Shown: positions 48,786-61,761, counted from the stretch's first letter. The stretch is 64,000 nucleotides of DNA from Candidatus Latescibacterota bacterium (GCA_965205485.1 OZ242180.1:4736001-4800000), one strand, 5' to 3'. Translations and numbers: made by a program. The notes: generated by a model not told the origin, from the letters alone.

Positions 48786-50130
48786 TCAACGCGTCCAGTT
48801 CAAATATAGATTGACCGCGGTAAAGTTGACGATCGCCCAGACCGTCAAGAGCAATGCAAGTTCCGTCCAGACGGACATTCTTTCCTCGTCCGCGGCGCGC
48901 ATCGCCAGGTGGACCACGCCGTAGGCCATTGGAATCAACAGCAGGTTGTTGGCGTTTGCCCCGATCAGCACCAGCGCAAGCGGGGTATCGGGGGTTGCAA
49001 TGGTCACGCAGAGCCACAGGAACGGGAAGGCGATCTGCAGCGACCGCAGCAGCCGAAGACGCACCGCTTCGTTATCCAGACCGGCGACGCCCGTCTGCCT
49101 GAGAAAATCGACGCTGATGCGCCCGGAACTGGCCGTGAACACCAGCAGCGTGGAAAACAGCGTGCAGAAAGCGCCGAACATGAACACGTTCTTTGTCCAT
49201 GGTCCGATGCTCTGCGTAAAGATCAATGAAACCTGTTCCACGACCTCCATGCCCTGCGGGACCACGTTCAGCTTCTTCAGAATCGAGGCGCCCAGCAGAT
49301 AGTAGGCGCAGGTAATCACCAGTGCGATCCCGGTGCACACCAGCGCATCGGTTTTCAGCACACGCATCCAGCCCCGATATCGCGCGCGCCACTCCGGCGT
49401 ATCCTCCCTCGGCCCCACAAAATCCGCATACCCTTTCTCCCGCACCCAGTAGGGATACATGAACAACTCCACCGCCGTCGCGCCTACGGACCCCATCACG
49501 GCCATGGCGACGAACGCCCCGTCCGCAGGCAAGCGCGAAGCGAAATCCCGAAAGCACCTCGGCGCCTCCCACGGCGTATGGCGTGGCCTGCATCGCGATC
49601 ACGGATCCGATGACGACCAGGCTGAAGCCCGCGACCAGAATCGTGATCATCCGCTCCAGGTCGGCGTACAGGCCCCGGTACAGCAGAATCGAGATTGCCG
49701 CGAAAACCAGAATGGCCCAGACATTGTACGGGACTCCGGGAAGGAGGGTCACCATCAGTCCAGCCACCGACCCCAGTATGCCGATGACGGCAATCATAAC
49801 GGAGAAATAACCCAGCACGCACAGCCATGCCGCCCAGGAAGTCTTCGCCAGACGCATCCCCGGCACGCGGTCCAGCACCTGAATCGTCGTACTGTTGTGG
49901 AGGATGCACTGGCGCCCGAGTTCCAGCTGGATGAAGAACTTGACCAGACAGGCCAGGATCACCCCCCAGAGGAAGACGAAGCCCACCTCCGCCCCCATGC
50001 GCGTGGTCACCAGCAGCTCGCCGGACCCGACCACCGAACCCGACACGACCACGCCCGGCCCGATATTCCGCAGCAAGCCTCCGACGCCCCGCGGCGCCTC
50101 TCGAACCGGCCGTCTGGCTTCACTTTTCAT
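48786..50130 (-). CDS. Nramp-like transporter, +1 frameshift near 49531
   Basis: 'IGPG..VSGS.VGSGEL', 'KFFIQLELGR', then 'YPYW..EKGY', 'TLFST'; span is 1345 nt (3n+1). Confidence 0.8.
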
Positions 50131-50320: not shown

Positions 50321-51655
50321 CTAATACACCGGCAGATAACGCTCGCGTTCCCACTGGTCGACGTGCAGATGGTACTCCGCCCACTCTTCGCGTTTGACCT
50401 GCACGTAATAGTCCGCATATTCCGTCCCGAGCGCCTCCCGGAGTACGTCGTCGGACGCCAGGTGATCGGCCGCCTCGGCCAGGGTACCCGGGAGCAGGTC
50501 GATGCCCCGCGCTCTCAATTCGCTTTCGGGCACCTCATAGAGATTGCCCTCGTTGCGTTCGCCCGGCTCCATGCGGTTTTCGATGCCGTCCAGCCCGGCC
50601 GCCAGCATGGCCGCGGTCGTCAGGTACGGATTCGCCGCCCCGTCGATCGCCCGGTTCTCGATCCGCCCCGCGTCCGGGATTCGGATCATCTGCGTCCGGT
50701 TCGATCCGCCGTAGGTGATGCAGATCGGCGCCCAGGACGCACCCGATCGGGGAGCGCCCCTCGTGAGGCGTTTGTAGCTGTTCACCAGCGGCGCGGACAC
50801 GGCGGAAATCGCCTTCGCGTGGTTGAGGATGCCCGCCATGAACCAGTAAGCCTCCTTCGACAGACCGTTTTCATCGCCGTCGTCGAGGAACAGGTTGGTC
50901 CTGTTCTCCGGGTCCCACAGGCTCATGTGATAGTGCGCTCCGCTTCCCGTGAGATGTGAAAACGGCTTCGGCATGAAGGTCGCGTGGTATCCGAGCCGCT
51001 CCGCGTTCACCTTCACCATCCATCGGAAGAACGTCTGCCGGTCGGCGGTCGTCAGGGCATCGGAAAAGGTCCAGTTGATCTCGAACTGGCAATTGGCATC
51101 TTCGTGGTCGTTTGCATAGGGTTCCCATCCCAATTCCTGCATATACCCGATGAGCGTGGTCATCACGTCCAGGTTGCGATGCAGGGTGACGAGATCGTAA
51201 CAGGGCTTCTCCAGCGTATCCATCGGATCGGCCAGCGCATAGTTCCCCTGGTCGTCTTTCTTCAGGAGAATGAACTCGGCTTCCACGCCCAGGTTCAGGC
51301 GATATCCCTTCGCCTCCGCCTTCGCGAGCTGCCGCTGCAGGATCGTCCGCGGACAATATCCGAAAGGCTCCCCCTCGACCTGGATGTTGCCCGCCACCCA
51401 CGCCGTATTCTTGCGCCACGGCAATACGGTCATCGAGTTGAAGTCCGGTATGTTCATCATATCGGAATCGTGCGGACCCTGCCCCATATTGCCCGCTGCG
51501 AAACCTGCGAAGCCCGCGCCTTCCGAGGCCATGTCGTCGAGGTGGGTCACAGGCACCACCTTGGCCTTGGGCATCCCGCTCATCTCCACAAACGAACACA
51601 GAAAGAAGTCGATTCCATTCGCGGCTACGAATTCTTTAACCTGGTCCAGCGTCAT
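50321..51655 (-). CDS. glnT: GlnT-type glutamate-ammonia ligase, probable gamma-glutamylmethylamide synthetase (GmaS)
   Basis: 'KAKVVP', 'GAGFAGFA', 'PCYD', 'NDHEDANCQFEINW', 'FMPKPF', 'NRTQMIRIP'; methylamine gene context. Confidence 0.88.
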   Translation of the reverse strand: MTLDQVKEFVAANGIDFFLCSFVEMSGMPKAKVVPVTHLDDMASEGAGFAGFAAGNMGQGPHDSDMMNIPDFNSMTVLPWRKNTAWVAGNIQVEGEPFGYCPRTILQRQLAKAEAKGYRLNLGVEAEFILLKKDDQGNYALADPMDTLEKPCYDLVTLHRNLDVMTTLIGYMQELGWEPYANDHEDANCQFEINWTFSDALTTADRQTFFRWMVKVNAERLGYHATFMPKPFSHLTGSGAHYHMSLWDPENRTNLFLDDGDENGLSKEAYWFMAGILNHAKAISAVSAPLVNSYKRLTRGAPRSGASWAPICITYGGSNRTQMIRIPDAGRIENRAIDGAANPYLTTAAMLAAGLDGIENRMEPGERNEGNLYEVPESELRARGIDLLPGTLAEAADHLASDDVLREALGTEYADYYVQVKREEWAEYHLHVDQWERERYLPVY

Positions 51656-52228: not shown

Positions 52229-53914
52229 TCAGAACAGACCGACCGTGTGTCCGGCTTCATCATAATCGATCGCCTCGGCCGACGGCCTGCGCGGAAGCCC
52301 CGGCATTGTCATGACGTCTCCGGTATACACGACCACAAAACCTGCCCCGGCGGACACCCTCACGTCGCGGATGGGCACGTCGAAACCCCTCGGTCTGCCC
52401 TTCAATCCCGGATCCGTCGAGAGCGAATACTGGGTCTTGGCCATACAGACCGGAAGCCTACCGTGCCCCGCTTCCTCGAGCTTTGCGAACCGGGCTCTCA
52501 ACCGTTTGTCCCCCATAATATCGTCGGCGCCGTAGACTTCGCGGGCAACGATCCTGGCCTTGTCCCACAGGCGAAGACTGTCGGGATAGAGAAGCTTGAA
52601 ATCACGGGACGCCGTTTCCGCGGTTTCGACGACCGTTTCCGCAAGCGCCTCGGCGCCGGCCCCCCCTTTCGCCCAGTGTTCCGAAGGAACGATCGGCAGA
52701 TCCAGGTCGGCGCACCCGTCCCGTATCAGAGCGATCTCAGCGGGCGTATCGGAAAGAAAGCGGTTCACGGCCACGACCGCGGGCAGGCCGAAACGCCGGA
52801 TGTTTTCGATGTGCTTCCTCAGGTTAACGAGACCCTTTTCCAGCGCCGCCGGGTCGGCGTCCGACAGTCGCCTGAGGGAGGCGCCGCCATGGTACTTCAG
52901 CCCCCGGACGGTCGCCACGAGCACCACCACATCCGGACGGATACCGGCCTGCCTGCATTTGATATTCAGAAACTTCTCCGCGCCCAGGTCCGCGCCGAAT
53001 CCGGCTTCGGTTACGGTATACTCGGACAGACGCATCGCCAGCTTCGTCGCGATCACCGAATTGCATCCATGCGCGATATTGGCGAACGGGCCGCCGTGAA
53101 CGATGGCGGGATTGTTCTCCAGGGTCTGAACCAGATTCGGCTTTAATGCGTCTCTCAACAGAACGGACATCGCCCCGTGCACATTGAGGTCCGACGCCGT
53201 GACCGGTTCATTGGCTCGCGTATACGCCACGATGATCCGACCCAGCCGCTCCCGGAGCTCGTCAAGCGACTCGGACAGGCAGAAAATCGCCATCACTTCG
53301 GACGCGACCGTGATTTCAAATCCCGATTCACGAGGATAGGAGTTCCCCGTACCTCCCAGACCGACGACGACTTCACGAAGCGCGCGGTCGTTCATATCCA
53401 TCACGCGCTTCCAGAGTACGCGCCGGGGATCGATTTGCAGCCGGTTCCGGTGGTGGATGTGGTTGTCGATCGCGGCGGACAGCAGATTGTGAGCGACCCC
53501 GATGGCATGGATGTCGCCCGTAAAGTGCAGGTTGATGTCCTCCATCGGCGCCACCTGGGACATCCCCCCGCCCGCAGCGCCGCCCTTCATTCCAAAACAG
53601 GGACCCAGGGAAGGCTCCCTGAGACAGATTGCCGTGCGCTTGCCCAGCCGGTTCAGCGCATCGCCCAGGCCCACGGTCGTGGTTGTCTTGCCTTCGCCGG
53701 AAGGCGTGGGATTGATTGCCGAGACCAGCACCAGCTTGCCGGCGGGATTACCGGCAAGGCTGTCGTAGAAGTCCATCGAAACCTTGGCTTTGTGCCTGCC
53801 GTAGACTTCCAACTGGTCTTCCGGCACGCCCAATGTCTGCGCGACCTGACCGATATGGCGCAGACGCGCCCGCCTCGCGATCTCGATGTCCGGCAAACCG
53901 TCGTGTTCGCGCAT
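52229..53914 (-). CDS. fhs: Formate--tetrahydrofolate ligase
   Basis: '[15 protein letters not shown]', '[20 protein letters not shown]', '[14 protein letters not shown]', 'CMAKTQYS', 'MTMPGLP'. Confidence 0.97.
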
Positions 53915-53923
53915 GAAACCTTT

Positions 53924-55318
53924 CTAGCCGCCCGCCTGCGCTTCGTCGATTTCCGCCTGAACGAGTTCGTCTGCATCCGCCGTCTCGTTCTGAATGGACA
54001 CGTGATCCAGGCCCGCAAGTTCTATTCGACCCGGTATGCGCAAAACGCCAAGCTTTTTGAGGATCCCACCCAGGACGTAGCAGGGAAGAAAGCCCAGCAC
54101 GAAAAACATAATGACGGCTCCGAGCGTCTGTCCCCACGGCGTAATCGGAGCGTACTCGGGATTGGCGGCGGGGTAACCCCAGAGTACGAATCCCGCGACA
54201 ATCACCCCGATAACCCCGGCATAGCCATGTACCGCCACGGCGCCCACCGCATCGTCGATCCTGAATCTCTTCTCGACCCAATTGTGCAATTTGTACATGC
54301 AGAACGTGCCGAATGCGCCGATGAGCAGCGCCTGCATCGGATGGTACAGGTCGTTGCCGGCCGATGCCGTGATGATGCCGGCAAGTCCGCCCGAGAAGGT
54401 CCAGTACGGATCGCCTTTGGACACGAAATAGCCCATGATTAATCCACCGGCGAGCGACATCAGAAAGTTGAACGTGATGGCGCTGAGCGTCGTGGGCGTC
54501 AGGTAAATCGTGGTGGCGGAAAAGAACGCGCGGTCGCCGGCGGGATCCACGTCCATGATGGGCACGTTACAGGCAGCGTAGAAGCCCCAGAACCCCGTAT
54601 AGATCAGAAACAGACCGATAATGACCAGCCAGGTGTTTTGCGGCGGGAAGTTTCTGGGAGAACCGTCGGACCTGAATCTGCCGATCCGCGGTCCCAGGTG
54701 ATAGAGGATCGCCAGCGCGGACCCGCCGCTGATCGCGTGGATCACACCGGAGGCGTATGCGTCGTGGTATCCCAGTACCTGAACCATCCAGCCGTCGGCG
54801 GACCAGCCCCACGCCGCGTCGATCACCCAGGTAACCGATCCTACCAGCACGGCGAAAATCCAGAACGCGGCGGATCGGATGCGTTCGATGACCGCACCCG
54901 AAAGAATCGACCCCGCCGTCCATGAGAACAGCAGAAACGCCGCCCAGAACACGCCGTTCAGCCGCGCCCATAGCGCGGTGTCGTCTCCGGTCAGCCCGCC
55001 GCCGTGCGGCTTGCCACCCATATGCGTCCCCATCAGCTCATTCCAGGGCGTCGCCCACGCGGCTTCGATCAGCCCACCCGTGATCCCGGGTCCGTTCTGA
55101 ACGGCGAAATAGATCCACCACCCGAAGAAATAGAACGTGATGGTGACCAGAGGAATCAACATCGCGTTCTTCATGAGGGTGTGCATCATATTCTTCCTCC
55201 TGGACACGCCGACTTCGTACAGACAGAAGCCGACGTGGATGAGGAACATGAGCACGATACATATCCAGTAATAGAACTCCGTAAACACGACGGTCAATGC
55301 GCTGAGTTCGTTGTCCAT
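53924..55318 (-). CDS. amt: Ammonium transporter (Amt) family protein
   Basis: 'HVGF..YE.G..R.KN', 'SGAVIERI', 'LGPRIGRF', 'IDDAVGAVAVHG'. Confidence 0.92.
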   Translation of the reverse strand: MDNELSALTVVFTEFYYWICIVLMFLIHVGFCLYEVGVSRRKNMMHTLMKNAMLIPLVTITFYFFGWWIYFAVQNGPGITGGLIEAAWATPWNELMGTHMGGKPHGGGLTGDDTALWARLNGVFWAAFLLFSWTAGSILSGAVIERIRSAAFWIFAVLVGSVTWVIDAAWGWSADGWMVQVLGYHDAYASGVIHAISGGSALAILYHLGPRIGRFRSDGSPRNFPPQNTWLVIIGLFLIYTGFWGFYAACNVPIMDVDPAGDRAFFSATTIYLTPTTLSAITFNFLMSLAGGLIMGYFVSKGDPYWTFSGGLAGIITASAGNDLYHPMQALLIGAFGTFCMYKLHNWVEKRFRIDDAVGAVAVHGYAGVIGVIVAGFVLWGYPAANPEYAPITPWGQTLGAVIMFFVLGFLPCYVLGGILKKLGVLRIPGRIELAGLDHVSIQNETADADELVQAEIDEAQAGG

Positions 55319-55382
55319 CTAATCCCTCCGAATTGAGCGATAAGAATGCCCGACGCCCGCGACAGGCGCAATTCAGATCTTA

Positions 55383-55544
55383 GAAGCTGTGTTAAAATTC
55401 CCAGCGGTCTTCGCGCGGCTGCAAAAGCGCCGGTCGGCGTTGGTCAAACCCGCCCGTATAGACAAATATGCGCGGATTTTCCCGCCTTGACCGCCACTTT
55501 TTCGCTCGCGCTCGGGAACTGACCGGTAATTTTAACACAGCTTC
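55383..55544. mobile_element. Palindromic MITE-like element, copy 4 (162 bp)
   Basis: Perfect 17-bp terminal inverted repeat, flanks TTA/TGA; supplies the last codons and stop of the flavin reductase gene. Confidence 0.82.
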
Positions 55545-56032
55545 TGAGCCGTCCCGTCCGACATCCTGCGGTACTTTCCCTGGTAAAACAGGAGCGGACG
55601 ACCTGAACCCGCGTCGCCCGCTACGATTTCACCCACGAAAATATCGTGGTCGCCGGCCCTCAAGACGTCGGCCAGCATACATTCCACGTGGCCCAGTGCG
55701 TCCGTGAGGATGGGCGCGCCGGTCCGGATCGTCGTTGTGGCCACGTTTGTAAAGTCCTTTGGACCCGGTCTGGCAAACTGCGTTGAAACCGCTTCCTGAT
55801 CCTCGCTGAGGATATTCAATGCGAAATACCGGCTTTCCGTCAAATGGGCGTGCATCTGCGCCCCTTTGTCCACGGATACCATGACCAGCGGGGGCTCCAG
55901 CGAAAGCGAGGTCACGGCATTGGCCGTCATTCCCCTGTATTCGCCGCCTGCAACGGTCGTGACAACGGTGACGCCGGTTGCAAAACAACCCATAATCCGA
56001 CGTTGCTCCATCGGGTCGAAGGCCATTCCCAT
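55532..56032 (-). CDS. Flavin reductase (HpaC/RutF-like)
   Basis: 'MGCFATGVTVVTT', 'GMTANAVTSLSLEPP', 'GDHDIFVGEI', 'PLLFYQG'. Confidence 0.93.
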   Translation of the reverse strand: MGMAFDPMEQRRIMGCFATGVTVVTTVAGGEYRGMTANAVTSLSLEPPLVMVSVDKGAQMHAHLTESRYFALNILSEDQEAVSTQFARPGPKDFTNVATTTIRTGAPILTDALGHVECMLADVLRAGDHDIFVGEIVAGDAGSGRPLLFYQGKYRRMSDGTAQKLC

Positions 56033-56130
56033 TCCCTCTCAACGAGTGCGCCGTCCGCCACGAAACTTCCCCTCCCGTCCAGGCGGTTCCGCGCCGGCCG
56101 GGGAAGCATTGCCGGCCCCGGAAGCTGTAA

Positions 56131-58464
56131 TCAGGAACGAAGCCGCGTTTTGTCCGGATCGTAAAACGGAAACCGCACCACCCGCGCGGAAATGCGCTTC
56201 TGATGGCCGTCCAGCCTTCCCACCTCGACTTCCACTCCGATCGCGGCGTACCCGGTCGCGATCCGGCAGAGCGCGATGTTCCTGCCCAGAATCGGTGAGC
56301 GGGCGCCGCTGGTGATCACGCCAACGCGGCCGCGCCCGTCGTAGACGTCGTCGCCGGAGGCGACCGGTTCATTCCCGGATACCTCCAGCCCCACCAGCAC
56401 GCGTTGTGGATGCGACCGCCTTCGGATCAGCGCTTCTTTGCCGATAAAGTCGTCTTTCTTGCGCCTGAGCGGAACCGTGAAGCCGATCCCCGCCTCGAAC
56501 GGGTCCGTCTGATCGTCGAACTCACAGCCCGCGAAAACCAGACCGGCGTCGATTCGCAGCATGTCCAGGGCTTCCAGCCCCAGTGGTGTCAGGCCGTACC
56601 CCTGTCCCGCTTCCCAGATGGCGTCCCAGACCGGGTTCGCGTCGTTGGGATGGCACCATACCTCGTAACCCAGTTCACCCGTGTAGCCGGTCCGCGAGAC
56701 GACGACCGCCGGACCGTTTCCATCGCCGATTCGGCCCACCGTGAACCGGAACCAGCCCAATTCGGCCAGAGACGGGCGCGAAGGAGGGGTCCAGATGACG
56801 TCGCGAAGGATATCCCGGCTTCGGGGACCCTGAACGGCAAGATTATGGAGTTGATCGGTCGAGTTTCTGACCCACACCCGCAACCCGAGTCGACCCGCCT
56901 GTTCGCGCAGCCATTTGCCCCCGTAGTCGTCGCCGCAGATCCACCGGAAATTTTCGGGGCCCAGCCGGAACAGCGTGCCGTCGTCCAGCATGCCGCCGGT
57001 TTCGTAACACATCGCGGAATAAGTCACCTGGCCCGGAGAAAGCCGGCGAACGTCTCGCGTGAGCGTGTGCTGCAGGAGCGACTCGGCGTCCGGACCCAGG
57101 ACCTCGAACTTGCGAAGCGCGGACAGGTCCATCACCGCCGCCGCCTCGCGGCATGCGAAATACTCCTCGACGGCGCCCCTGCCGGTGTAGCACGAGGGCA
57201 GCCAGAACCCGCGATAGTCCTCGAAATGGCGGGTCAGGGCGGACGTGCGCGGGTGAAAAGCCGTCTCCCTGGTCAACCTGGGCTCGGCGTCTGCCGTCAT
57301 CCGGTGAGCAATCCCTGTGGAAAACCGGTACCGTTCAGGGTAGATGCGGACGTGAATCTCCGTTGGCTCCCAGCCGTTGGCCGGATCAATATCGTCCGGG
57401 CACGCGGACGACAGACACACAAGGTCCGTCGAGGCCTTCAACAGGACGTAGTCGCCCGGACGAGACCATGGCTCGTCCATGAACAGGACGTTATTCCCGT
57501 CGATTCTCGTATTGTAAAAGAAATTCACGGCCGGCCAGCCGCGCCGCGGGTGAATCGTATACGGGTCCAGTGCCGCGTTGAAGTTGTCCGTACAGTTGAC
57601 GTGACCCGGATAACCCATATCCTCGTAATATTTGGCGGTGCACGCAAGCGCAAACGTATCGTGCCGACCTACCGTATCCCGAACGACCTCGACCAGCGGC
57701 TGCATATCCTGGTCGTAAAACTTCGAATAGAGGCCCGGACCGGGATAGGCCGTGCCCATGAGGGTCCGCGTGGTGGTCGCATCCAGGCCACGCTCAACGC
57801 CACGCTGCAGTTGCCGGGCGTCGAACGCCAGAAAATCGGAACACTGGCGCCCGGCGACGTCGATCACCTGGATGAATTCTCCGGCTTTGACCTCAAAGGC
57901 GACGGCCGACGCCCTTTCCACCTCCAGATCCAGGCGCATGTCCCCCAGAGGCGCGGGCAGCGGGGGGCGTTCCGGCGTTTCCGCACTCGAGCGCCTGACC
58001 ACGACTTCCAGGTCCGTGGGTGGATCCTGGGCATCCACCCGCATCGGTCCGCCGGGCGCCGCAATCACGCAGACGGCGTCCCGATGCACGTCGAAGCGCG
58101 CTTCGGCGCCCGCTTCCGACGCTTCGCCGAAGACCTGCACCGCCCGCGCGCCACCCAGGTTGACGCCCCTGCGCCGCAGGGCCGCGTCGGCCGCCCGCGC
58201 GCTTTCATCCCCGCGCCGAAGCGCCTCCGCGAAACCTTCCATCGCACCGTCAGCTCGGAGACCCAGCCTGGCGGGATCGGCCCCGCCGTCAGGACCGAAT
58301 ACGCCCAGCTCGCAACGCTGGCGCCCCTCCACGTCCACGACCGCCAGCCGGTCGCCCTGCGACACCACCAAGGCGATCGCCCCGCCGCCCGGCACCCGGT
58401 AACGCTCCCTGCCCGGCGTCCATCTCAGCAGTCCCGTACCGGCCATTTGGACGTCTTCAGGCAT
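56131..58464 (-). CDS. tdm: DUF1989 + GcvT fusion, probable trimethylamine N-oxide demethylase
   Basis: DUF1989 'GRQCSDF', 'RHDTFALAC..KYY...GYPGHVNC', 'SSACPDD' (three-Cys site), then GcvT 'DLS.LRKFEV.GPDA', 'SRTGYTGELGYE', 'PFYDP'. Confidence 0.82.
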   Translation of the reverse strand: MPEDVQMAGTGLLRWTPGRERYRVPGGGAIALVVSQGDRLAVVDVEGRQRCELGVFGPDGGADPARLGLRADGAMEGFAEALRRGDESARAADAALRRRGVNLGGARAVQVFGEASEAGAEARFDVHRDAVCVIAAPGGPMRVDAQDPPTDLEVVVRRSSAETPERPPLPAPLGDMRLDLEVERASAVAFEVKAGEFIQVIDVAGRQCSDFLAFDARQLQRGVERGLDATTTRTLMGTAYPGPGLYSKFYDQDMQPLVEVVRDTVGRHDTFALACTAKYYEDMGYPGHVNCTDNFNAALDPYTIHPRRGWPAVNFFYNTRIDGNNVLFMDEPWSRPGDYVLLKASTDLVCLSSACPDDIDPANGWEPTEIHVRIYPERYRFSTGIAHRMTADAEPRLTRETAFHPRTSALTRHFEDYRGFWLPSCYTGRGAVEEYFACREAAAVMDLSALRKFEVLGPDAESLLQHTLTRDVRRLSPGQVTYSAMCYETGGMLDDGTLFRLGPENFRWICGDDYGGKWLREQAGRLGLRVWVRNSTDQLHNLAVQGPRSRDILRDVIWTPPSRPSLAELGWFRFTVGRIGDGNGPAVVVSRTGYTGELGYEVWCHPNDANPVWDAIWEAGQGYGLTPLGLEALDMLRIDAGLVFAGCEFDDQTDPFEAGIGFTVPLRRKKDDFIGKEALIRRRSHPQRVLVGLEVSGNEPVASGDDVYDGRGRVGVITSGARSPILGRNIALCRIATGYAAIGVEVEVGRLDGHQKRISARVVRFPFYDPDKTRLRS

Positions 58465-59858
58465 CACCCCTCGTCGGTTTCGGCCAGAAGCTCACGGGCG
58501 AGTTCCTTCTTGCTCCCGCCATCCATTTTCTTGAGTTCGTTTCTCAATAGCCGCTCGTTTACGGACTGGTTCCAGTAATCCAACGAGTCGAACCCAAGCA
58601 GCACGCTCTTGCCCACAAATTGGCGCAGGACCTCATTCGTGGGGCCCATCACCCAACCGGCCTTGCCGTCGCGCAGATACCGTTCGATTCCCAGGTCGGG
58701 CTTGTAACCCGTCCCCCCACAGGCATGCAGCATCTTGTCGGAGACGTTCGCCACGTTCTTCGCCGCCGTGAACTTCACCTGCCACATCCAGTGCAGCACG
58801 TCCGCCCTTGGCATACGGGAGAGATCCTCGTGGATCGACCAGTCGCACTGATTCGTAACGTCGTCCATCGCCCGGGCCATCAGGTAGACGAAGGACCGTG
58901 AGGTGTTCGTATCGATCACGGCCTCGCCCACGTAATCCTGGATGGTCGGATAGTCAGCAACCCGCATGCCCACGTCAGCGTGCCGCCTGGCGGTGGTGTG
59001 CCGCCTGGCGATATCGATCATACCCAGTGAAATTCCGTTCCAGCAGGCCGATGAGCACAACAGGAAAAACGGATCCACCGTCTCGTCGTTCGAATTCGCC
59101 CCGTCGCCCACGGGACCCACCAGCCTGCTTTCCGGCATCGTGACGTTGTCCACCTCCAGCGTGCCGGACTGATTCCCGCGCAGACCCAGGCCGTCCCAAA
59201 GGGACGGCTCCGCCTTCACCTCGTCGGCCATGACGAGAAAACAGGACAGATTCGAATAGTCACCGCCGAAATCAGGGCTTGTTGTCTGCACGATGTACCA
59301 GTCGGCAAAACCCGCGGACGTCGTCCACGACGCCTTCTTTCGCACCTTCCAGCCGCCATCCACCCGCTCCGCTCCCGACGATATCGGATACCAGAAATGT
59401 GAACCCGTTTCGGGATCCGAATAGGACAGCGTGCCCACCAGTACGTCTTTGTCGAGGCGTTTCATGAGGTCCTGAAGCGTCGTGTTGTCGTGCGCCCGGA
59501 ACATGGCGGCTGCGACAGCCCCGACGTGCATGGTATAACACATCGCCGTACTTGCGCAGCCGTAACGCGCGATCGTCTCCACCACCATCGCCGTACACGT
59601 ATGGTTCTCACCCAGTCCTCCCCATTCGCGGGGTACGTTCAGCCCTAGCAGGCCCAGAGAAGCCAGCGCCTCGAAGTTCTTCCGTGGAAACACGAGCTCG
59701 CGATCGCTCTCAACCGCATTGTCCCGCAGCGTCGTCCGGCACAGGTCGATCAGCTTCTCCTGGAGCGCCTCCTGTTCGTTCGTCAATACCCACTGGGGGT
59801 CCCAGTCGTAGTCGAGACCCCAGAACGCATCCGGACCCCACATCTTCGACTTGCTCAT
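58464..59858 (-). CDS. Acyl-CoA dehydrogenase-fold flavoprotein, possible flavin-dependent monooxygenase
   Basis: SD GGAGG; 'P.EWGGLG', 'SDPETGS', 'K.SWTTS', 'WDGLGLRGNQS', 'GGTGY', 'ERYLRDG'; no EG(T) catalytic Glu. Stop overlaps the tdm ATG (TGATG). Confidence 0.85.
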   Translation of the reverse strand: MSKSKMWGPDAFWGLDYDWDPQWVLTNEQEALQEKLIDLCRTTLRDNAVESDRELVFPRKNFEALASLGLLGLNVPREWGGLGENHTCTAMVVETIARYGCASTAMCYTMHVGAVAAAMFRAHDNTTLQDLMKRLDKDVLVGTLSYSDPETGSHFWYPISSGAERVDGGWKVRKKASWTTSAGFADWYIVQTTSPDFGGDYSNLSCFLVMADEVKAEPSLWDGLGLRGNQSGTLEVDNVTMPESRLVGPVGDGANSNDETVDPFFLLCSSACWNGISLGMIDIARRHTTARRHADVGMRVADYPTIQDYVGEAVIDTNTSRSFVYLMARAMDDVTNQCDWSIHEDLSRMPRADVLHWMWQVKFTAAKNVANVSDKMLHACGGTGYKPDLGIERYLRDGKAGWVMGPTNEVLRQFVGKSVLLGFDSLDYWNQSVNERLLRNELKKMDGGSKKELARELLAETDEG

Positions 59859-59906
59859 AACGCCTCCAGGCTGTTTGGTACGCCGGGTTTGCAACCCGGC
59901 CATGCG

Positions 59907-60314
59907 CTATCCGCCTTCGCCTTCGAGCTTGATTCCGTACGCGTCGCCAAGCTCCATGACGGGATGTTTTTCGGACATCTGGAACTTGACGAGCAGTTCG
60001 CGCGCAATCATGTCGCGCTCCTGCTGGTTGTCGGGCAGCGCCATATCTTCGGGCACCAGCACCCAGCCGTTGATGTTCCGGTCGAATACGGCGGGCTTCC
60101 CATCTTCGTATCCCATATGCACATCTTCCAGCCAGTTCAGGTCCCGCCACCCCATCGCCTCCATGTATCGCTTCAGGAGCGGCGTCAGCAGCGTATAGTC
60201 CGGCGGAAGGTTCACGTCGTACCGATATCCGATGTGCTGACCGATCTCCTTCTCGCGGTCCGAGTCAAGCCCCGTGGACTTCAGGTAGTAATTCACGTCT
60301 CTGGCTTCGTCCAT
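59907..60314 (-). CDS. Hypothetical protein (135 aa)
   Basis: SD AGGAG, soluble protein-like composition, co-oriented between mgsC and the flavoprotein gene. Confidence 0.75.
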   Translation of the reverse strand: MDEARDVNYYLKSTGLDSDREKEIGQHIGYRYDVNLPPDYTLLTPLLKRYMEAMGWRDLNWLEDVHMGYEDGKPAVFDRNINGWVLVPEDMALPDNQQERDMIARELLVKFQMSEKHPVMELGDAYGIKLEGEGG

Positions 60315-60396
60315 CGGATTCTCCTGATTCAGTATCCCGGAAAGTGGAGCGCAAGACCGGCGGTGTGCGTTGTGGTCTTCTTCCTTCTTCCGTCGT

Positions 60397-61761
60397 TCAA
60401 TACCGGTTCATCTCCGGATGGCCCACCGTATGGCGGGTGCCCGCAAGCGGCACCTCAGCCATGGCGGATGCTTCCATGGTCAGCGCCGCAAGATCTTCCG
60501 GCTCGAGGGAATGGACGTCGGTCTTGCCGCAGGCCCTGGCGAACATCTGGCATTCGATCGCGAGGGTATGCAGGAAATTGTAGACCCGTTCGGCCGCTTC
60601 GTCCGGGTCCAGGCGGCTCCGAAGCACCGGATCCTGGGTGGCCACGCCCACCGGGCACAGCCCGGTATGGCAATGATAGCAGTAACCCGCCGGAACGCCG
60701 ACCGTCCCCTCGTAATCCGCCTCCGGGATATCCTTGTTGCAATTCAGCGCAACCATCGCCGCGGTGCCGATGGCTACCGCGTCGGCGCCAAGCGCAAGCG
60801 CCTTGGCAACATCGGCCCCGTTTCGTATGCCTCCCGCATAGACGAGCGTAATCTCACCGGTCTTTCCAACGTCATCCAGCGCCTTTCTGGCCTGCCGTAT
60901 CGCCGCGATACCCGGCACGCCCGTCTCCTCGGTGGCCAGGTGGGGACCCGCCCCCGTCGAACCCTCCATCCCGTCCATATAGATGCTGTCGGGCCCGGTC
61001 TTGGCCGCCATCCTCACATCGTCGTAGACCCGCGCCGCGCCGAGCTTCAGCTGGATGGGTATCTGCCAGTTGGTGGCTTCGCGAATTTCCTCGATCTTCA
61101 GGGCCAAATCGTCGGGACCCAGCCAGTCCGGGTGCCTGGCGGGAGAACGCTGGTCGATCCCCGCCGGCAACGAGCGCATTTCGGCCACCTGGTCCGTCAC
61201 CTTCTGGCCCATCAGGTGCCCGCCGAGGCCCACCTTGCAGCCCTGGCCGATGAAAAACTCCACGCCGTCGGCAAGACGCATGTGGTGCGGATTGAACCCG
61301 TAGCGGGACTGAATGCACTGGTACAGCCACTTCTCCGAATACCGGCGTTCGTCGGGCAGCATTCCGCCTTCTCCGGAACAGGTTGCCGTGCCCGCCATCG
61401 TGGCCCCTCTCGCCAGCGCCACCTTCGCTTCGTAAGACAGCGCGCCGAAACTCATCCCCGTGATGTAAATGGGAATATCCAGCACCAGCGGCCGTTCGGC
61501 CATCGGCCCAAGCACTGTCTTCGTTTCGCATTTCTCGCGGTACCCCTCGATGACGAACCGGGTGAGCGTGCCCGGAAGAAACGTCAGGTCGTCCCACGAC
61601 GGGATCTCCTTGAAAAGCGCCATGCCGCGCATGCGGTACCGACCCAGATTCGACTTGATGTGTATATCGTCGATCACATGAGGCGGAAACATGAAATTCT
61701 TGCCCAGGACCTGTGGATTCCGTTCGATCCCTGCATTGCCGTTGTCCGAATGTGGTTCCAT
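60397..61761 (-). CDS. mgsC: FMN-binding glutamate synthase family protein, probable N-methylglutamate synthase subunit C
   Basis: 'GMSFGALS', 'GEGGM', 'GQGCKVGLGGHL.GQK', 'DQRSPARHPDWLGPDDL', 'CYHCHTGLCPVGVATQDP'. Confidence 0.82.
   Translation of the reverse strand: MEPHSDNGNAGIERNPQVLGKNFMFPPHVIDDIHIKSNLGRYRMRGMALFKEIPSWDDLTFLPGTLTRFVIEGYREKCETKTVLGPMAERPLVLDIPIYITGMSFGALSYEAKVALARGATMAGTATCSGEGGMLPDERRYSEKWLYQCIQSRYGFNPHHMRLADGVEFFIGQGCKVGLGGHLMGQKVTDQVAEMRSLPAGIDQRSPARHPDWLGPDDLALKIEEIREATNWQIPIQLKLGAARVYDDVRMAAKTGPDSIYMDGMEGSTGAGPHLATEETGVPGIAAIRQARKALDDVGKTGEITLVYAGGIRNGADVAKALALGADAVAIGTAAMVALNCNKDIPEADYEGTVGVPAGYCYHCHTGLCPVGVATQDPVLRSRLDPDEAAERVYNFLHTLAIECQMFARACGKTDVHSLEPEDLAALTMEASAMAEVPLAGTRHTVGHPEMNRY

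Follow-up and report, generated by a model that had tools for sequence, protein, structure and literature searches.

Trimethylamine (TMA) is described in the available parts of PMC13390433 and PMC4543880 as being degraded through trimethylamine N-oxide (TMAO) and dimethylamine (DMA) to monomethylamine (MMA). Tmm, an enzyme of the flavin-containing monooxygenase (FMO) type, TMAO demethylase (Tdm) and DmmABC belong to this pathway. Another set of flavoenzymes, the group D monooxygenases, have the acyl-CoA dehydrogenase (ACAD) fold and an external reductase (PMC6165268, PMC10696468), and N-hydroxylation has been described among them (PMC6165268), as far as the available parts of these papers go; the portion of the group D literature covered contains no enzyme forming a tertiary-amine N-oxide. 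Here we analyzed a 64,000-nucleotide stretch of a Candidatus Latescibacterota genome (GCA_965205485.1 OZ242180.1:4736001-4800000; hereafter the window), in which the gene of an ACAD-fold flavoprotein overlaps tdm and is accompanied by a gene for an HpaC-like flavin reductase. Judged from sequence and gene context, this flavoprotein probably oxidises TMA to TMAO as the oxygenase component of a two-component flavin monooxygenase of the group D type, acting as a non-homologous stand-in for Tmm. No description of its family was found in the literature searched, supplements and most subscription papers lying outside the search, and the parts of PMC5520151, PMC13390433 and PMC9999580 covered do not mention it.

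The three genes at the core of the locus are the following:

58464-59858, minus strand: ACAD-fold flavoprotein of 464 aa, candidate TMA N-oxygenase (oxygenase component), with Pfam ACAD N/M/C domains
56131-58467, minus strand: TMAO demethylase Tdm of 778 aa (NF053776; DUF1989 + GCV_T + GCV_T_C)
55532-56032, minus strand: HpaC-like flavin reductase of 166 aa, probable reduced-flavin source (PF01613, E 5e-45)

The flavoprotein gene starts with ATG, with GGAGG just upstream, in a frame open from 59903, and its translation contains the motif WDGLGLRGNQS reported in the initial annotation. The TGATG overlap of its stop codon with the tdm start is real, the junction reading GGGTGATG, and Tdm scores 1241 bits with NF053776, above the cut-off of 1100. 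The source genome is a single contig, 97% complete, in which searches for tmm, dmmC, FMO-like genes, TmoP and OpuAC-type binding proteins were negative, so that the lack of tmm and dmmABC annotated for the window extends, for tmm and dmmC, to the whole genome. Since no recognised TMAO importer was found in this genome either, TMAO probably arises inside the cell. The genome has a single old-yellow-enzyme-like gene; its match is weak, and no model of a TMA dehydrogenase named it. Both the TMA and the DMA steps are therefore unfilled by recognised genes, and both were tested as the possible place of the flavoprotein.

A pattern scan of genome_contigs yielded 363 confirmed relatives, the best 80 of which share 71-98% identity with the flavoprotein and come from Latescibacterota, Acidobacteriota, Alphaproteobacteria, cyanobacteria, Melainabacteria and Caballeronia; close relatives are encoded by metagenome-assembled genomes (MAGs) of Latescibacterota or Gemmatimonadota. 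Cultured carriers include Caballeronia, Leptolyngbya sp. BC1307 and Virgifigura deserti, the last of which also has tmm genes. No match was present in the plasmids searched. The loci of these 80, together with 80 metagenome loci found via the Caballeronia protein, form a set of 160 ACAD loci, in which tdm occurs 103 times (55 times in the 63 loci that reach 15 kb), flavin reductase 78 times, dmmC 18 times and tmm once. Several phyla are represented in this linkage, and the co-occurrence with tdm anticipated at the outset was thus borne out. Among 50 ACAD genomes picked from the 80 loci for spread across several phyla, a true Tmm was found in one and a dmm cluster in three. Only two FMO-like hits, both in genome G024, were counted as Tmm; the others were rejected, seven as far below the NF058570 cut-off and five judged on identities of at most 30%. 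Likewise, 7 of 10 PF11927 hits were not accepted as dmm, having at most 28% identity to clustered dmmC and no adjoining dmmB.

Some relatives show deviating arrangements. In three Waterburya loci (L070:11523-12197, L066 and L078), Tdm is represented next to the ACAD gene by its DUF1989 part alone; other cyanobacteria encode a shorter, 638-aa Tdm, often with copper amine oxidase and PhyH genes. Five single-member records (P0271-P0275; 850-1290 aa) join the ACAD-fold protein to Tdm, either as real fusions or through indels at the overlap; they and some similar fragments were excluded as evidence, since a single indel at the gene overlap would produce them.

The relation to tmm was followed in two alphaproteobacterial orders, with the core ACAD family defined by at least 70% identity. 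In the order of Virgifigura, 73 of 83 genomes were tdm-positive, the ten without a Tdm-level match being dropped; 36 of the 73 carried the ACAD gene only, 27 tmm only, five both and five neither (Fisher p 4e-10). Hence tmm was present in 5/41 ACAD-positive and in 27/32 ACAD-free tdm-positive genomes. The second order (127 genomes, 64 tdm-positive) comprised six genomes with the ACAD gene only, 42 with tmm only, two with both and 14 with neither (p 0.009), corresponding to tmm in 2/8 versus 42/56. The anti-correlation with tmm foreseen in the initial annotation thus held in both orders, and every core-family genome carried tdm (41/41 and 8/8, 49 in total). Two genomes marked as unpublished, G111 and G442, one in each order set, do not change the pattern. 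Burkholderiaceae, with the ACAD-fold gene in 1/247 scored genomes, were dropped as a test set.

Gene order provides more direct evidence for the TMA step than these genome counts. In a slot of the form reductase-[ACAD or tmm]-...-tdm-greA, the ACAD gene is found at loci L045, L046, L048 and L057, tmm at L117, L120 and L123, and both genes at L034 (Virgifigura). A second lineage contains a locus with the ACAD gene only (L133), one with tmm inserted between the ACAD gene and tdm (L129), and three with tmm only (L124, L127 and L128). A chemoreceptor gene with PAS and MCP-signalling domains (L122:10839-11588) stands between tmm and tdm in eight loci (L116-L123) and adjoins the ACAD gene in L182, L183 and L192.

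DMA had been named as an alternative substrate, in which case the flavoprotein would N-hydroxylate the product of Tdm to give methylamine and formaldehyde, replacing DmmABC. A gap at the DMA step is on record (PMC5520151, in the part available), dmm, like tmm, is missing from the source genome, 47 of the 50 ACAD genomes have no dmm cluster, and this reaction would account for the seven genomes with both ACAD gene and tmm. The suggested avoidance of dmm was observed in part: in the two orders the ACAD gene and dmm never occur together (0/41, p 0.005, and 0/8; 0/49 in all), which DMA as substrate predicts and which weighs against TMA, but dmm genes lie directly beside the ACAD gene in 18/160 loci, all lacking tmm (17 of the 80 metagenome loci plus Caballeronia, each with the ACAD gene following dmmC), and TMA is therefore favoured over DMA. 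Operons of the type tmoP-dmmA-dmmB-dmmC-ACAD-reductase-tdm (L140; L149 additionally with a dmmD-like gene) encode all enzymes of the route from TMA to MMA but the first, although, TmoP being a named TMAO permease, they could also use imported TMAO. Moreover, two Waterburya genomes have both the ACAD gene and dmm, and dmm is rare anyway, being absent from 26/32 and 50/56 ACAD-free tdm-positive genomes of the two orders; the ACAD gene is therefore not filling a dmm gap, and its slot is taken by tmm. Taken together, DMA is an unlikely primary substrate, and a side activity on DMA or dimethyl sulfide (DMS) would not contradict TMA oxygenation.

The flavoprotein consists of ACAD domains only, without an NAD(P)H-binding domain of its own, and falls below every NCBIfam cut-off, the top model being Rv1679/FadE16 (NF049984; 217 of 600 bits, E 3e-64). 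Its family forms one clade on a stem of 0.98 changes per site relative to the nearest shorter relatives, with 100% support in the Shimodaira-Hasegawa-like approximate likelihood-ratio test (SH-aLRT). The AlphaFold (AF2) model (mean predicted local distance difference test score, pLDDT, 85) displays the ACAD fold, followed by a family-specific C-terminal helical tail past residue 426. It matches many true dehydrogenases (Z 38-42, root-mean-square deviation 2.3-3.0 A over ~370 residues, 14-26% identity), and the only known oxygenases among the top structure matches are 5z8t/5gj7. The structural comparison proposed in the initial annotation bore out the ACAD fold; as the scores against true dehydrogenases are high, the fold alone cannot tell the reaction.

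The C-terminal loop RDGKAGWVMGPTNE is present in the translation as annotated and aligns G405 with the Glu of the YEGT loop in true dehydrogenases (MCAD E376); this Gly occurs in 329/329 bacterial rows. Position 264, which we take to be that of the helix-G base of the isovaleryl- and long-chain acyl-CoA dehydrogenases (IVD and LCAD), is Phe (F264) in 97% of these rows and Glu in none, so the catalytic Glu, whose absence had been set as a test, is missing at both places. Ten residues stand out by their conservation, in no fewer than 98% of bacterial and 95% of animal rows: H111, D148, H154, W156, E259, W273, H293, W357, M404 and E409. From sequence rather than model coordinates, we infer a pocket of acidic and aromatic residues that could accommodate a small amine.

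As a further alternative, the protein would act not in oxygenation but as an acyl-CoA dehydrogenase of unusual type, with E259 as its base, or as a flavin-dependent helper of Tdm, for example an N-oxide reductase. This would agree with the best sequence and structure matches, which are true ACADs, with the invariance of E259, with the CoA-transferases adjoining one paralogue clade, and with the finding that the reductase can remain beside tdm when the ACAD gene has gone. It is nevertheless very improbable: Glu is missing at both known base positions; no electron-transfer flavoprotein (ETF) or CoA ligase gene was named among the 40 window open reading frames (ORFs) scanned, as the initial annotation had it, nor among recurrent neighbours; tdm functions without the ACAD gene in 69 tmm-only genomes; and the fusion to an NAD(P)H reductase described below is unexpected for an ETF-linked dehydrogenase.

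In the proposed TMA oxygenation, the HpaC-like or another cellular reductase would produce reduced flavin from NAD(P)H, and the ACAD-fold protein would bind it and, with O2, form a C4a-hydroperoxyflavin. The invariant D258, E259, D262, H154, W156, W273 and W357 may hold the small amine, and oxygen transfer to its nitrogen would give TMAO. The translationally coupled Tdm would then split TMAO into DMA and a folate-bound one-carbon unit, the latter presumably handled by formate-tetrahydrofolate ligase (Fhs), encoded in the window. The HpaC-like reductase lies at most 1 kb from the ACAD gene in 50/160 loci and is a likely partner, but a dedicated role is not supported, because it is absent from 82/160 ACAD loci and retained in six tmm-only loci.

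Stronger evidence than the neighbouring reductase that the flavoprotein needs reducing power comes from animals. Profile searches revealed dozens of records (P0122, P0327, P0349, P0362, P0374 and ~60 more) in which the ACAD-family domain is joined, in one protein of ~770 aa, to an FAD/NAD(P)H module resembling cytochrome-b5 reductase (PF00970 + PF00175), which supports an NAD(P)H-fed oxygenase. P0327 and P0122 (XP_042236428.1) are lobster fusions. In bacteria, a more distant subclade is likewise accompanied by a flavin reductase, in line with such an oxygenase. The fusion occurs in crustaceans, corals, a brachiopod, an annelid and a chiton, mostly marine invertebrates. By record name, the carriers are Homarus (with three paralogues), Penaeus, Macrobrachium, Scylla, Panulirus, Procambarus, Cherax, Petrolisthes, Palaemon, Oratosquilla, Armadillidium, Hirondellea gigas, Hyalella, Meganyctiphanes, barnacles, Owenia, Lingula, Montipora, Porites, Acropora, Desmophyllum and Liolophura. 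Many of these genes are on megabase-size contigs, several paralogues are found per decapod genome, and the records are unnamed or mislabelled. Over 463 residues, one lobster copy shares 60% identity with the window flavoprotein; the fusion rows in the tree have 47-65% identity, with a long-branch ostracod copy at 36%, and the named animal sequences form one clade within the ACAD-fold family.

Lobster and copepods are reported to oxidise TMA themselves. The animal fusion may be regarded as a non-FMO candidate for invertebrate TMAO synthesis. Crustaceans hold TMAO, which PMC9511220, in the part available, credits to FMOs. A broader and decidedly tentative reading is that the family constitutes a second, FMO-independent TMAO synthase of bacteria, as two components, and of animals, as a self-sufficient fusion of ~770 aa making TMAO as an osmolyte or pressure protectant; the carriers include the hadal amphipod Hirondellea gigas and krill. 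Freshwater and terrestrial crustaceans also possess the fusion, and bacterial paralogues as distant from the window protein as the animal copies (52-64%) stand away from tdm.

These paralogues (L216-L225, L229 and L230) bear on the idea that the enzyme oxygenates some other tertiary amine or sulfide, such as a larger N,N-dimethylamine or DMS, with TMA as a minor substrate. One paralogue clade lies between two Rieske oxygenases and the CoA-transferases mentioned above, and another has a dimethylglycine-dehydrogenase-like gene together with a flavin reductase. Such surroundings, the variable neighbours of the ACAD gene itself (copper amine oxidase, PhyH, amino-acid transporters), the multiple paralogues in each crustacean genome and the coexistence with tmm in seven genomes would suit another substrate. 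The ACAD gene, however, is constantly paired with that of Tdm, an enzyme of the TMA pathway, it disappears where tmm occurs, and no sulfur-assimilation genes recur among 39 annotated neighbour representatives, which makes a principal substrate other than TMA improbable.

Several further observations weigh against TMA oxygenation. The fold matches true dehydrogenases equally well or better than known oxygenases, and the invariant E259 could serve as a base at an unusual position. The paralogues away from tdm indicate that the family is not restricted to one substrate. The Fisher counts overstate independence, since three changes explain ACAD presence on a 36-row tdm tree, and many of the genomes counted are incomplete MAGs. 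In four of the seven genomes with both ACAD gene and tmm the two are at most 3 kb apart, and the 14 tdm-positive genomes with neither gene make up 14/64 of the second order. The uneven occurrence of the HpaC-like reductase also belongs here. The two-component oxygenase replacing Tmm, as initially proposed, nevertheless agrees with the tdm linkage, the tmm anti-correlation, the missing Glu, the shared slot and the animal fusions, and it would be the most probable function of the flavoprotein.

The remaining features of the locus are as follows:

60397-61761, minus strand: MgsC-like glutamate-synthase-domain gene (FMN subunit, second paralogue; PF01645)
59907-60314, minus strand: 135-aa ORF, conserved unknown protein, no Pfam or NCBIfam family
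53924-55318, minus strand: Amt-family channel, possibly a methylamine or ammonium route (PF00909)
52229-53914, minus strand: formate-tetrahydrofolate ligase Fhs (NF010030, 868 bits, cut-off 652)
50321-51655, minus strand: type III glutamate-ammonia ligase of the glutamine-synthetase family (TIGR03105, 591 bits, cut-off 470), presumably GmaS
55378-55549, strand not assigned: ~168-bp repeat resembling a miniature inverted-repeat transposable element (MITE), with terminal inverted repeats, between reductase and amt, incidental (genome matches)

The annotated order mgsC, 135-aa gene, ACAD gene, tdm, reductase, amt, fhs and glutamine-synthetase-family gene is present, all on the minus strand. Amt recurs adjoining the ACAD/tdm pair in Latescibacterota, Acidobacteriota and cyanobacteria. 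The MITE-like repeat, found 86 times in the genome at a match length of 120 bp or more, provides the final codons and stop of the flavin reductase gene. An Nramp-like transporter (48786-50130) is split into two overlapping frames (49072-50130 and 48786-49532); it is a single 454-aa ORF in close relatives, so the window copy carries a frameshift or a sequencing error. Promoter and terminator scans gave results at chance level.

The 135-aa protein, put forward earlier as a possible part of the oxygenase, was rejected in that role on synteny: mgsC lies at most 2 kb from its gene in 45/47 loci, the other two being short contigs, and the gene is absent from 124/160 ACAD loci and present in eight loci with tmm and without the ACAD gene. 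The protein is conserved (67-94% identity across 19 rows), with no usable Atlas match; its model (pLDDT 71) has no fold match above Z 2.9, and a complex prediction with MgsC scored 0.00, which carries no weight either way. It belongs to a second block of glutamine-synthetase-like (GS-like) and mgsABC genes, not with the oxygenase. In the source genome, mgsABC is present as two paralogous sets, with a pair of GS-like ligases (C1:3574702-3586446 and window 59907-61761): an ordinary mgsABC-mgdABCD-like set, with a MgsC paralogue 59% identical to that of the window at C1:3576591, and a split second block, in which the partners of the window mgsC lie elsewhere (GS-like gene and second mgsA/mgsB at C1:3583153-3586446). 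In G079, dmm genes occupy the position of the GS-like/mgsABC block of relatives; the GS-like gene is missing from 3/6 dmm genomes versus 7/67 others (p 0.03), and 6/9 dmm genomes tested yielded no 135-aa gene. That the second GS-like/mgsABC/135-aa module might serve as a Dmm-independent DMA route is a rather doubtful proposition. Two further genes recur in these clusters. One encodes a conserved unknown protein of ~200 aa (L058:5362-5964; also L013, L115, L124 and L133), without Pfam or NCBIfam match, and adjoins the 135-aa gene, reductase or tdm; the other encodes a conserved 446-aa DAO-family oxidoreductase (L024:13749-15086; C1:4111269-4112597 in the source genome), far below the SoxB cut-off, another candidate for a missing demethylation step.

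Altogether, the flavoprotein represents a real, widespread and uncharacterised enzyme family that is probably a second kind of TMA N-oxygenase, with a surprising self-sufficient branch in animals. If so, surveys counting tmm overlook TMA oxidisers in Latescibacterota, Acidobacteriota, Dongiales, some Betaproteobacteria and cyanobacteria, and group D flavoenzymes would gain a new reaction, the conversion of a tertiary amine to its N-oxide. The invertebrate fusion offers a single soluble-looking gene for asking how crustaceans and other invertebrates make TMAO. Whatever the substrate, a protein that has no name in either organism and is 60% identical between bacterium and lobster deserves attention.

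Compared with known systems, true ACADs (MCAD, SCAD and IVD types) share the fold but differ from the flavoprotein in having a Glu at one of the two base positions and in their beta-oxidation rather than methylamine context; with the top-scoring named model, Rv1679/FadE16, its score remains far below the cut-off. DmmABC belongs to the same pathway and is often missing where the ACAD gene is present, yet it is an unrelated three-subunit enzyme, co-encoded in the 18 loci noted above. With group D monooxygenases (DszC, HsaA, C2/HpaH, SfnB, isobutylamine N1-monooxygenase and KijD3/DnmZ) the flavoprotein has in common the ACAD fold, the lack of the dehydrogenase base and an HpaC-like reductase, while the C-terminal helical tail sets its family apart. 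It scores 49-70 bits with the named models of DszC, HsaA, C2 and SfnB, against cut-offs of 431-850 (DszC, 63 versus 850; HsaA, 63 versus 450), and its match to KijD3/DnmZ (E ~1e-11) is weaker than to ordinary ACADs; KijD3/DnmZ and DszC, invoked in the initial annotation, thus stand as precedents for the chemistry and not as close relatives. The predicted structure fits group D, although the protein belongs to no named group D family. With Tmm, finally, it would share the reaction (TMA + O2 + NAD(P)H -> TMAO), and it shares the position beside tdm and, in sister genomes, the same slot; it differs in having no sequence match to NF058570, in its ACAD rather than FMO fold, and in the proposed two components instead of one. 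The flavoprotein would work like Tmm, yet it is not a Tmm.

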